DNA of 64,000 bases, taken from a virus. Positions 3-34,277 of this stretch are shown here, piece after piece (position 1 is the first letter of the stretch; each line of letters starts with the position of its first letter). Both the position numbers and the translations under genes were made by a program. The notes beneath the pieces were generated by a model. That model saw only the letters and a list, made by a program, of their open reading frames with translations. It did no database searches and was not told the origin of the DNA. Where the stretch lies: positions 1 through 64,000 of IMG/VR virus record IMGVR_UViG_3300046007_012472; one strand, 5' to 3'.

Positions 3-371
3 AACCTGCTACTATCAACTATGAGCGGGCATCCATGCACACGATGGGTAATGGAAAGCCGACAGAATTATGAATGGTTGTTTGTCCACGGTTATGAACT
101 TTGTCTTGAGTATACTCGTCGTTACGAAAAGACTCATAAGCTTCAAAATCTTTATATTGACCTGCTTCACGACTTCCCTTCTAACATTCGTGATCTTGGT
201 CTTACCACTTTTGCTCAAGCCATGCCAGATCAATACAAGAATCTTGATGCCGTGACTGCATATCGTAATTATTATGTTTTTGAAAAGGCACGATTCGCAA
301 AATGGAAGAACGGCAAGATTCCAGAGTGGTATGTTGACATGCTCAATCCAACTGCTATAATGGTAGCATAG
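3..371 (+). CDS. pyrimidine-dimer DNA glycosylase (DenV-related) family protein, 5' truncated by window edge
   Basis: HPCTRWV...NYEWL...LCLEYTRRYEKTH and FAQAMPDQYK..DAVTAYRNYY motifs; frame open to window start. Confidence 0.75.
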   Translation, partial: NLLLSTMSGHPCTRWVMESRQNYEWLFVHGYELCLEYTRRYEKTHKLQNLYIDLLHDFPSNIRDLGLTTFAQAMPDQYKNLDAVTAYRNYYVFEKARFAKWKNGKIPEWYVDMLNPTAIMVA

Positions 372-550: not shown

Positions 551-580
551 GGGTCCAATAAAATTGGACCCTTTTCTTTT
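551..580 (+). terminator. intrinsic terminator after the tRNA pair
   Basis: GGGTCCAAT-AAA-ATTGGACCC hairpin followed by TTTTCTTTT. Confidence 0.8.
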
Positions 581-586
581 GGTAAT

Positions 587-670
587 AAAACCGGGAGGAC
601 CAACCTCCCGGCTCGCCAAGGCGGATAGATCACCTCCGACTTGTAGCCCAAATGGGCGGGGTGCCTCGGC
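587..670 (-). ncRNA. putative late small RNA antisense to the 16S rRNA 3' end (h45/anti-SD)
   Basis: TAAATA (676-681, minus) ends 5 nt before a G start; closing stem GCCGAGG/CCUUGGC; contains GGAGGUGAUCUAUCCGC; ends in CCGGGAGG/CCUCCCGG hairpin + UUUU. Confidence 0.7.
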
Positions 671-675
671 AATGA

Positions 676-692
676 TATTTATTACATAAATA
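676..692. promoter_or_regulatory. back-to-back T4-type late promoters
   Basis: AATAAATA on minus (676-683) and CATAAATA on plus (685-692); T4 gp55 consensus is TATAAATA. Confidence 0.65.
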
Positions 693-701
693 TTAAATGC
701 C

Positions 702-1670
702 ATGGATGCAATCTCTGAAGATTTAAAACGCTGGTTTAAGGAAAGGTGGGTGGATATTTCCCGGAAAGACAAGTCCGGGAAACACCCACCCTGTGGGCGT
801 AAGAAGTCTTCCAAGAAGGGCTACCCCAAATGCCGTCCTTCCGTCCGGGTGAGCTCAGAGACCCCGGAAACGACCGGAGAGATGTCCGGGTCGGAGAAGA
901 AGGCTGCGGTGCGTCAGAAACGCTCTGCGGAGGCTAAAAAGAAAAGAAAAGGAAAGAAGCCTATCATGACTTCACATCATAATATCAAAGAAGAATATCT
1001 TGAAGAAAAGAATGTTCCGACCAATAAAAAACTTTATTCAGCAGTAAAAGCACAAGCAAAGAAAAAATTCAAGGTCTATCCATCTGCATATGCAAATGCA
1101 TGGCTTGTCAAAACATACAAAGCTAGAGGTGGAGGATACAGATCCGTAAATGAGGCACACGATATGGGCGATTATAAAAAAGAAGCCATCGACATGGCAA
1201 TGTCAGAACTGATGAAAACCCAAAAATATGCAGGAGAGCTTTTGGGTATCATGAAAAAAGCAAAAAATGTTGAACCTTGGATACAAGGAAAAATTACCAC
1301 AATAGGTGATTATATTGGTACAATAAAACATTATCTTGAATATAGACATTCAAAATATGGAAAAATTATTGAATCAATAATGGAAGGCAAAAAAGACATG
1401 CCTTGCAACAAACCCCGCCCTTCCACCAGTGCCGGTAAGAAGATGATGGTAAAGGCATGCGAAAATGGCAAAGAAAAAATCGTACATTTTGGTGCTAAAG
1501 GATATGGACACAACTACAGTGCCGCCGCCCGCAAGTCATTCAAGGCTCGCCACAAGTGTTCAGAGAAAAAGAGTAAACTCTCTGCTCAATATTGGGCATG
1601 CAAAAAACTTTGGGCTGGTAAAGGTGGCTCCAAGTCTTCGTGCCCACCGGGAAGAAAATGTAAGTATTGA
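702..1670 (+). CDS. basic modular late protein of T4-like phages (possible internal head protein)
   Basis: Lys-rich modules DLKRWFKERWVDI..PCGR, VYPSAYANAW, EPWIQGKIT, KIVHFGAKG..SFKARHKC separated by xxE motifs; late promoter upstream. Confidence 0.7.
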   Translation: MDAISEDLKRWFKERWVDISRKDKSGKHPPCGRKKSSKKGYPKCRPSVRVSSETPETTGEMSGSEKKAAVRQKRSAEAKKKRKGKKPIMTSHHNIKEEYLEEKNVPTNKKLYSAVKAQAKKKFKVYPSAYANAWLVKTYKARGGGYRSVNEAHDMGDYKKEAIDMAMSELMKTQKYAGELLGIMKKAKNVEPWIQGKITTIGDYIGTIKHYLEYRHSKYGKIIESIMEGKKDMPCNKPRPSTSAGKKMMVKACENGKEKIVHFGAKGYGHNYSAAARKSFKARHKCSEKKSKLSAQYWACKKLWAGKGGSKSSCPPGRKCKY

Positions 1671-3106: not shown

Positions 3107-3122
3107 TTACATAAATAAAAAT

Positions 3123-3446
3123 ATGAAATCATTCAAAGCATTTATTCTAGAACAAGATTCTCCTTTTTGGTGGATGAGAATGGCTATGGGTCAAGGAGAA
3201 TATTCGGCACAACCATTTAGAACACTTGCACCTCAAAACTCATATACCTATGATGGTGGTGTAGAAGTTGCAAGTTCTCGACCCGCAAATGTACAACCTG
3301 CAAGAGTACAACCTGCAAGAACCCAACCGGCAACACATTCGCCCGCTTCGACCAGAGTATCAAGTGAAATTAATTCATCAAATTTAGAATCATCAGAAGG
3401 CCAAACTGATAAATTTAAAAGAACGACAGCATTCGAAACAAGATAA
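3123..3446 (+). CDS. late hypothetical protein, possible internal head protein
   Basis: TAAATA 5 nt before ATG; MKSFKAFILE N-terminus; VQPAR repeats. Confidence 0.65.
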   Translation: MKSFKAFILEQDSPFWWMRMAMGQGEYSAQPFRTLAPQNSYTYDGGVEVASSRPANVQPARVQPARTQPATHSPASTRVSSEINSSNLESSEGQTDKFKRTTAFETR

Positions 3447-13571: not shown

Positions 13572-13579
13572 TATAAATA
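13572..13579 (+). promoter_or_regulatory. T4-type late promoter
   Basis: Perfect TATAAATA. Confidence 0.8.
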
Positions 13580-13584
13580 ATTAT

Positions 13585-13639
13585 GCCGCTTAGGACCGTC
13601 AGGGTGCGAGACTCCTCATTCCGGGGAGTCTCGCCTTTT
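13585..13639 (+). ncRNA. putative late small RNA antisense to 23S rRNA helix 69
   Basis: G start 5 nt after TATAAATA; CTTAGGACCGT is the exact reverse complement of 23S ACGGUCCUAAG; followed by a 12-bp hairpin (13606-13634) + CTTTT. Confidence 0.7.
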
Positions 13640-33428: not shown

Positions 33429-34277
33429 TTATGATCTGTCGTATTTCAGTGTTCTTGTAATTCTGTTGTATTTTCTTTCAGCACCAGCCGGACGAACATT
33501 TTGCTGAACGGTTGTGAAAGTATAACCACCTGCAGTTTTACCCATTGCATTTATAAATCCAGATTTGATCTGGCCATTAATAACTGCTTGGCTCTTTGTA
33601 GCTTGTGCGGTGAAAATAACAGAATCAATGTTTGAAGGGGTGTTTATTTCTACCTTATCAACACCTAATCCAACATTTGTGCTAGTTCCAAAATAAGTTC
33701 TATCAGTTCTGGCTGGCTGAATTCCATCCACTAAAATTATTTCTGCAGTCAATCCTGTAGTAATCAATGAACCTCTTTCGACTAATACTTCATCCCATTG
33801 ACCAGAAGTGTAGAAAGTTGCGGTTTGTCCATCCATGTGTGCAAATTGGATTGATCCAGATGGAAGATTATTGATTGATATTTCTGCATTATTTGCGGTT
33901 AGTCCAATGTAAAGTCTGTCCACAATTAGATTTATTGGGCCTGTAATACTACCGAAAGAATAGCCTAGATTGGGGGCACTCAAGAATCTTTCACCATATC
34001 TTGGTTCTATTGTAATTGTGATTCCTTCAGCCCAGTTTTTTGCAGCACCTTCTCCTGTATATCCCGGCCAATATTTGAAACCAGAGGAAATACCTATTAA
34101 GCAAGCAGAACGAGCAGTTGCACCAAAAATGACCGTATCGCCACCGAAAGGCCAAGTTGTAGCTAGTGCTCCTGATACCGTGTTTGTTAAGAAATGACCG
34201 AAAGTGTGACCCCATTCATTAGCGGTTGGACCAACTCCACCAACTTGTGTGACACCTGCCCAGTAGTATGTCGCCAT
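33429..34277 (-). CDS. late hypothetical protein, probably structural
   Basis: AAGGAG RBS; CATAAATA upstream; beta-rich. Confidence 0.7.
   Translation of the reverse strand: MATYYWAGVTQVGGVGPTANEWGHTFGHFLTNTVSGALATTWPFGGDTVIFGATARSACLIGISSGFKYWPGYTGEGAAKNWAEGITITIEPRYGERFLSAPNLGYSFGSITGPINLIVDRLYIGLTANNAEISINNLPSGSIQFAHMDGQTATFYTSGQWDEVLVERGSLITTGLTAEIILVDGIQPARTDRTYFGTSTNVGLGVDKVEINTPSNIDSVIFTAQATKSQAVINGQIKSGFINAMGKTAGGYTFTTVQQNVRPAGAERKYNRITRTLKYDRS

Follow-up and report, generated by a model that had tools for sequence, protein, structure and literature searches.

Phages take over translation with proteins, and small RNAs that target ribosomal RNA itself are, to our knowledge, not an established phage mechanism. 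In the literature searched, we found no phage or bacterial small RNA (sRNA) for which action on the 16S tail had been demonstrated. Among the closest described systems, the small mRNA rreB carries a 17-nt Shine–Dalgarno (SD) sequence, binds 30S subunits in vivo and co-sediments with them (Hahn et al. 2016, PMC5711450). STAB-SD of Bacillus thuringiensis cry3A binds 30S without initiating translation and, from the 5′ end of a long mRNA, guards that mRNA against RNase J1 (Agaisse and Lereclus 1996, reviewed in PMC4113751). The Haloferax Val-tRNA fragment is a small RNA proposed to take a place on the small subunit and to lower mRNA loading there (PMC5711459). Here we describe a phage-borne unit that is very probably a real, conserved sRNA gene, standing alone, predicted to be structured, free of an ORF and read from the minus strand, and whose most conserved stretch mirrors the 16S tail.

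The DNA that we analysed, hereafter the window, covers positions up to 64 kb of an IMG/VR virus record that is 76 kb long and has a rated completeness of ~35%. Its genes include those for a T4-type DNA polymerase, a gp41-like helicase, UvsX and a gp6-like baseplate wedge; the polymerase is ~50% identical to those of cyanomyoviruses. DNA nearly identical to the window occurs in many lake-water metagenomes, and none of the sequencing runs listed as containing the locus is recorded as RNA. This T4-type gene set, together with the lake-water matches, indicates that the source is a freshwater T4-like myovirus. The unit faces two convergent plus-strand genes, tRNA-Lys (378–451) and tRNA-Leu (455–529), with the terminator of the tRNA pair at 551–579 (+), and is divergent from a plus-strand DUF5872 gene (702–1670, ATG at 702) that has late-promoter-like CATAAATA ahead of it (685–692, +). 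The DUF5872 gene is the sole neighbour that is constant across relatives. Adjacency to tRNA genes was considered as a rule and rejected, since no tRNA lies within 1.5 kb of the unit in four relatives (L323, L328, L329 and L330). Two further observations concern the tRNA genes themselves. A sigma-70 promoter of perfect consensus (TTGACA, 16 nt, TG-TATAAT) stands upstream of the pair at 334–361 (+), and ARAGORN places a tRNA-Ile(UAU) directly after tRNA-Gln in L002 (4258–4332), L003 (4313–4387) and L195 (5107–5181), with none in the window.

On the minus strand, the unit opens with the T4-type late promoter motif AATAAATA (683–676), followed by 5 nt (675–671) and then the putative start, G670. 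Late promoters of T4-like cyanophages and cyanomyoviruses have NATAAATA as their motif (PMC2984593). All eight variants of the unit keep NATAAATA or TAAATA, exactly 5 nt and a G. Elsewhere in the window, NATAAATA late motifs at 3110–3125 (+) and 5637–5622 (−) stand exactly 5 nt before the ATGs of ORFs 3123 (+) and 5624 (−), and the start of a second late unit, at 13585, has the same N5 spacing; this shared spacing makes G670 a sensible candidate for the transcription start. From G670 to a U-tract at 590–584, the predicted RNA would be 84–87 nt long (~86). Its first segment, GCCGAGGC (670–663), pairs with GCCUUGGC (622–615) to close the 8-bp stem P1. Within P1 lie, in order, a pyrimidine-rich joiner ACCCC (662–658), the hairpin P2 with sequence GCCC-AUUU-GGGC (657–646), a second joiner UACAAGUC (645–638), the core GGAGGUGAUC (637–628) and an extension UAUCC (627–623). 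The core is the complement of 16S 1530–1539, the single-stranded tail that carries the anti-SD. An intrinsic terminator, CCGGGAGG-UUGGU-CCUCCCGG (611–591) with UUUUAUU (590–584), ends the unit; a consensus terminator scanner did not list 584–611. Both the enclosing stem and the inner hairpin, described in an earlier note on this DNA, are present, the first being predicted in every homolog and the second by folding of the window RNA. Folding z-scores are −4.5 for the minus strand versus −2.8 for the plus strand.

The plus-strand sequence GCGGATAGATCACCTCC (621–637) corresponds to the minus-strand RNA GGAGGUGAUCUAUCCGC. Set against generic bacterial 16S 1523–1539, GCGG[C/U]UGGAUCACCUCC, this RNA forms 15 Watson–Crick pairs, one G–U pair and one mismatch over 17 nt, in agreement with the count in the earlier note. 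Shuffled sequences put the chance expectation for GCGGYTGGATCACCTCC with at most two mismatches at 0.01, and the exact 10-mer GATCACCTCC has a single occurrence in the window. Perfect complementarity to 16S spans 10 nt in all variants and 11–14 nt in some; over 1530–1539 the Escherichia coli tail is identical. Native SDs of the window measure 4–5 nt in 34 of 66 ORFs, and none is longer than GGAGG. The computed duplex of the core with the 13-nt 16S tail reaches −19.8 kcal/mol versus −5.8 to −11.8 kcal/mol for SD motifs of 4–5 nt. Part of the core is self-paired, so that, once unfolding is paid for, binding of the 13-nt tail yields a net −4 to −13 kcal/mol. The 16S-end consensus is matched at 15 of 17 positions once more, by GCGGTTGGACCAACTCC at 34222–34238 (+), also against an expectation of 0.01. 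This stretch lies within the 5′ coding part of minus-strand ORF 33429–34277, where it covers codons for GGVGPTA, and the match is probably a coincidence.

Folding predicts that the core GGAGGUGAUC is partly folded back on adjoining pyrimidines. In the minimum-energy fold (MFE) of the window RNA, GGAGG pairs with the downstream CUAUCC, and the extension likewise pairs with GGAGG in the MFE of four of six W-type RNAs. The joiner ACCCC could also mask GGAGGUG in cis; the mask put forward previously, CACC-CCG on CGG-A-GGUG, is possible but lies outside the MFE. The cage of the suggested anti-SD binder is weak and differs between subfamilies. Of the ~84-nt structured RNA with an extended SD, the stand-alone unit and a 10-nt core complementary to the 16S tail hold up; the length claimed beyond the tail is not established.

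A conserved single stretch in a short structured RNA is also the anatomy of an ordinary trans-acting sRNA, with its own promoter, a conserved stretch and a terminator, and at the sequence level the unit has all three. In such an account, GGAGGUGAUC would be a seed for CCUCC-containing (GAUCACCUCC-like) sites in phage or host mRNAs, or for anti-SD-type sRNAs, and might, for example, free SD sites that are masked in cis. However, elsewhere in the 64-kb window the complement of the core is found only as three one-mismatch matches against 2.9 expected, which is not above chance, and over 10 nt every base of the conserved stretch is matched by the 16S tail, as an mRNA target would also have to match it. 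We therefore consider an mRNA-directed seed unlikely, and take the 16S tail as the preferred partner of the core.

To follow the unit across relatives, we searched viral and metagenome contigs through the divergent DUF5872 protein, a search that is blind to the RNA sequence and thus yields relatives without bias from it. The unit stands at the equivalent place in six of the relatives found this way (L002, L003, L323, L328, L329 and L330). Three close relatives (L324–L326) lack it, and it is therefore dispensable; the minus-strand promoter motif is lost exactly in the relatives without the unit. Pattern scans added L195 and L201, and lake contigs aligned to the window gave one further variant. 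Besides the window, seven sequence variants were found in lake-phage contigs, six of them via the neighbouring gene alone. Stricter sequence patterns located the family in only four IMG/VR contigs besides the window, and a broad pattern, GAGGC...GGAGGTGATC...GCCT, was swamped, among the matches listed, by chance occurrences in GC-rich phages. Model R1 found no additional members on 99 loci, and a DNA search of a collection of isolated phages returned only tRNA similarity.

The core GGAGGUGAUC is identical in all eight variants and in a metagenome variant, X8. Around it, P1 is retained while its sequence changes: over seven distinct sequences, 98% of the cells in the P1 alignment are paired, versus at most 56% in controls with slid partners, and two pairs have changed on both sides, with two further wobble steps and a path C-G to U-G to U-A at one pair. 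In the covariation control, 34 of 500 shuffles reached the observed score, with only seven distinct sequences available. P2 is rewritten between two subfamilies, GCCC/GGGC versus GCUUCC-AUA-GGAAGC (L003 and L195), as are the joiners and the terminator, and each relative has its own GC-rich hairpin and U-run at the matching place. As judged from these alignments, the substitutions in P1, P2 and the terminator compensate one another. The joiner ACCCC becomes ACUCU, ACUU, ACUC, AAUCU, AUCC or AAAACCC in relatives, mostly through C/U changes opposite G, and UACAAG within the joiner UACAAGUC is invariant in six W-type sequences. In L002 and L330, P1 contains G–U pairs; read from the plus strand, these positions would be mismatched as A-C or C-A, which identifies the minus strand as the RNA.

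This pattern bears on whether the unit is a by-product in cis with no trans function, either what is left of the 5′ leader of a late gene that has since been lost, or a promoter–terminator insulator that would guard the DUF5872 gene against convergent transcription. Its dispensability in L324–L326 and its constant back-to-back placement with the DUF5872 late promoter would both suit such an origin. Nevertheless, a decaying leader would not hold an invariant 10-nt core and compensatory changes in P1, P2 and the terminator across two subfamilies, and an insulator requires no SD at all. We judge a cis by-product quite unlikely, and favour a selected RNA that pairs with the 16S tail.

An SD-like core might instead serve translation of the unit itself. 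Across the variants we found no conserved ORF, in line with the earlier statement that no credible ORF follows the SD. The downstream 25-codon TTG ORF, named at that point as the product that would overturn a non-coding reading, proved to be unconserved: the UUG frame is 6–25 codons long, depending on the variant, and continues past the terminator hairpin, and L003 and L195 lack it. Frames starting at UUG, AUC and GUG were all rejected as coding candidates, being unconserved across variants, and the RNA of the unit is by these comparisons non-coding. There is precedent in rreB for a tiny mRNA in which an extended SD drives weak translation of a micro-ORF, and in all six W-type RNAs an AUC lies 6–7 nt and a UUG 13 nt after GGAGG. 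But these frames run into and through the terminator, vary in length and sequence and are missing in L003 and L195, and the first residues of the UUG and AUC frames are fixed only because they overlap P1. A micro-ORF is, on this evidence, the least probable account that we weighed, and we continue with a non-coding RNA.

How far the pairing with 16S extends is a separate question. In the earlier note, the extension UAUCC and the GC of P1 were read as a complement of helix 45 (h45), and a host was predicted whose 16S end would remove the single mismatch. Under that full model, the RNA would pair with 16S 1523–1539, open h45 and block 30S maturation or subunit joining. The 15 Watson–Crick pairs and one G–U pair of the window RNA over 17 nt fit this, as do a U-to-C change opposite G1529 in a lake variant, which is a better match, a C-to-U change opposite G1525 in L330, which retains the pair, and contiguous pairing of L003 to 1526, or to 1523 with one A bulged. 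Yet these pyrimidine-for-pyrimidine changes preserve pairing to G1529 and G1525 and fold-back on the RNA's own GGAGG equally, the final two bases belong to P1, and a mismatch or bulge occurs in every variant. The bases after GAUC vary (UAUCC, CAUCC, CAUCU and CAACA). Helix 45 is a stable, conserved helix, and both its stability and its conservation stand against opening.

Comparisons beyond the family point the same way. The h45 complement is not kept in the ORF-less extended-SD units of other phages, which retain GGAGGUGAUCC, and analogous elements in other phages have a YAUCU element that pairs with GAGGU and has no complementarity to h45. The h45-extended complement, GGAGGTGATCCANCCGC, had 36 matches in viral contigs against ~30 expected, mostly in coding sequence or real 16S genes. 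When host 16S sequences were scanned with GCGGATRGATCACCTCC, scattered taxa appeared among the matches listed. The exact predicted form, GCGGAUAGAUCACCUCC, is a true 16S end only in DPANN archaea among the matches listed, and the form GCGGAUGG is scattered, again among those listed, over CPR bacteria, Fusobacteria, Brevibacillus, Campylobacter and others; neither the DPANN archaea nor these scattered taxa are plausible or diagnostic hosts. The extension into h45 is thus not established, and we regard an antisense action on h45 as very unlikely; the preferred pairing stays within the tail.

We propose that a late phage promoter drives a minus-strand RNA of ~86 nt, with P1 at its 5′ end and an intrinsic terminator at its 3′ end, and that the core GGAGGUGAUC would pair with the single-stranded 3′ tail of the host 16S (1530–1539). 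The RNA would then sit on the 30S at the place where an mRNA usually docks its SD, and would offer no start codon. Late in infection, initiation could shift so that SD-led messages compete less, and the leaderless or weak-SD late messages of the phage would benefit from that lowered competition. Of the functions that we weighed, tail pairing that keeps the anti-SD of the 30S occupied late in infection is the most likely, at about even odds. We infer transcription, the start site, 16S binding and the physiological effect of the sRNA from sequence.

Late genes of the suggested kind are found in the window. In addition to the two motifs placed 5 nt before an ATG, a late-promoter motif at 685–704 (+) lies 9 nt before the ATG at 702, and late motifs at these distances imply leaderless or near-leaderless late mRNAs. 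Several of the phage's own late genes use AGGAG-type SDs, so a full block of the anti-SD would harm the phage. Cells over-expressing rreB grew no more slowly, the RNA being outnumbered by ribosomes (PMC5711450), and a simple sponge would therefore need a very high copy number.

A second late, ORF-less unit lies at 13572–13639 (+) and comprises TATAAATA, ATTAT, GCCGCUUAGGACCGUCAGGGU and a terminator; it starts with GCCGCUUAGGACCGU, its first G being at 13585. The pattern TAAATA-N4-12-CTTAGGACCGT recurs in 61 viral stretches (loci L403–L463). Close homologs of this unit make up ~8 of them. In more than 20 of the 61 the RNA is longer; its 5′ end is formed by CUUAGGACCGU, which is invariant, and a covarying stem closes the loop that contains AUUCGCUACC. 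CUUAGGACCGU complements 23S 1919–1929 and AUUCGCUACC complements approximately 23S 1929–1938, so that together they complement the contiguous stretch 1919–1938. Among the loci of this family there were no Rfam matches. With this 23S-complementary family, complementarity to rRNA is something that recurs among late phage RNAs and not an isolated coincidence.

On this basis we tentatively suggest, as a possibility that we hold with less confidence than tail pairing alone, that lake and marine phages carry a two-RNA ribosome kit, in which one late RNA would act on the 16S tail and the second on 23S 1919–1938 (helix 69–71). If so, the phage would act directly on both ribosomal RNAs, and the purpose could be re-programming of initiation, a block of subunit joining or assembly, or shielding from defence nucleases. 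MazF-type toxins cleave single-stranded RNA. As a shield against host defence, the RNA would make the anti-SD double-stranded and thereby keep abortive-infection ribonucleases aimed at the 16S tail from cutting host ribosomes, and the companion 23S-antisense RNA would do likewise near helix 70. Toxins that cut the anti-SD region are documented (PMC12274833, PMC12620021 and PMC13284704), and the RNAs of the window are complementary to both rRNAs. Against this, a paired anti-SD would block normal SD use as well, and the idea is entirely inferential; we hold it to be highly improbable, and return to an RNA that alters initiation.

A late RNA that is conserved and ORF-less, and in which the bases that mirror the anti-SD tail are the only fixed ones, would provide a simple and testable example, and it is short enough for synthesis. 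Were it to work as proposed, it would account for how ribosomes are captured by phages whose late genes are leaderless or have weak SDs, and it would offer a natural template for anti-SD decoys. If the RNA does not bind 30S, the invariant 10-mer must have another target.

Other phages carry elements that mirror the 16S tail in different settings. In 16 viral stretches the motif GGAGGUGAUCC-N4-AUCUCGC precedes a hairpin; by a rough estimate, far fewer than one such stretch is expected by chance. Its loci (L504, L510, L500 and L516–L529) belong to diverse phage contigs with a GC content of 0.34–0.64 and lie inside operons, beside head scaffold, protease and portal genes. The hairpin often has a GCGUUA loop and sometimes a U-run, there is no canonical start codon, the motif is not in Rfam, and the consensus fold pairs GAGGUG with YAUCUC. 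This head-module motif resembles the window unit in its 10–11-nt complement of the 16S tail, a YAUCY fold-back on GAGGU, a hairpin or terminator after it and the lack of a canonical start; it differs in lying within operons by head genes, whereas the window unit stands alone. Homology between the two was considered and is not supported: with covariance model R2, built from 11 members, the scores are 9.6 bits (E 1) for the window, 12.4 bits (E 0.18) for L329 and 36.2 bits (E 4.5e-8) for a true member, L500.

Independent ORF-less units also occur in other T4-like contigs, each with a late promoter, N5, AGGAGGUGAUCC and a terminator: L197 (10150–10230, −), where the unit lies between a tRNA gene and uvsW, L200, and L512 (369–440, −). 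In L506 (~3406, −) and L515 (~2327, +), AGGAGGUGAUCC lies on, or directly behind, the stop codon that ends an upstream ORF; a terminator comes next, which puts an extended SD in a 3′ UTR.

Rfam 15, run on the window at gathering and permissive thresholds, passes only tRNAs, and nothing besides tRNAs was found on 28 related or analogous loci. The best Rfam overlap of the unit, to abiF RNA, is on the opposite strand, and its 16.2 bits (E 6.9) fall short of the gathering score of 37.

Among described RNAs, the alphaproteobacterial rreB/rreR are similar to the phage unit in being small stand-alone transcripts with their own promoter and terminator, and in having a complement of the 16S 3′ end that far exceeds a normal SD and is in part sequestered by a hairpin that leaves a short seed open. 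Like the unit in the window phage, rreB adjoins a tRNA gene. There is no sequence homology between them, and rreB is chromosomal and RpoD-driven, whereas the unit is phage-borne with a late promoter. The 17 nt of rreB span the whole free tail including the 3′ end, whereas the phage complement is perfect over 1530–1539 and otherwise runs toward h45. Where rreB/rreR are recognised by at least 16 nt of perfect 16S complementarity, the unit has the 10 nt common to all variants and 11–14 nt in some; where they have a conserved small ORF at the end of the complement (in rreB, 14 codons with the GUG inside the complementary region), the unit has no conserved ORF.

STAB-SD shares with the unit an SD-like sequence that is complementary to the 16S 3′ end and starts no protein, but stands at the 5′ end of a longer, stabilised mRNA, whereas the unit has its terminator at 611–584 and convergent genes beyond. 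With a terminator within 30 nt of its SD, the unit has no downstream message to protect, unlike STAB-SD. The Haloferax Val-tRNA fragment differs in being a processed piece of tRNA that does not use SD/anti-SD pairing. Trans-encoded base-pairing sRNAs match the unit in size and in gene anatomy, with a predicted promoter, a predicted terminator and no ORF; the difference is that the best complementary partner of the unit is rRNA and not mRNA. As the unit differs from both rreB/rreR and STAB-SD in their defining features, it would work like them without belonging to either.
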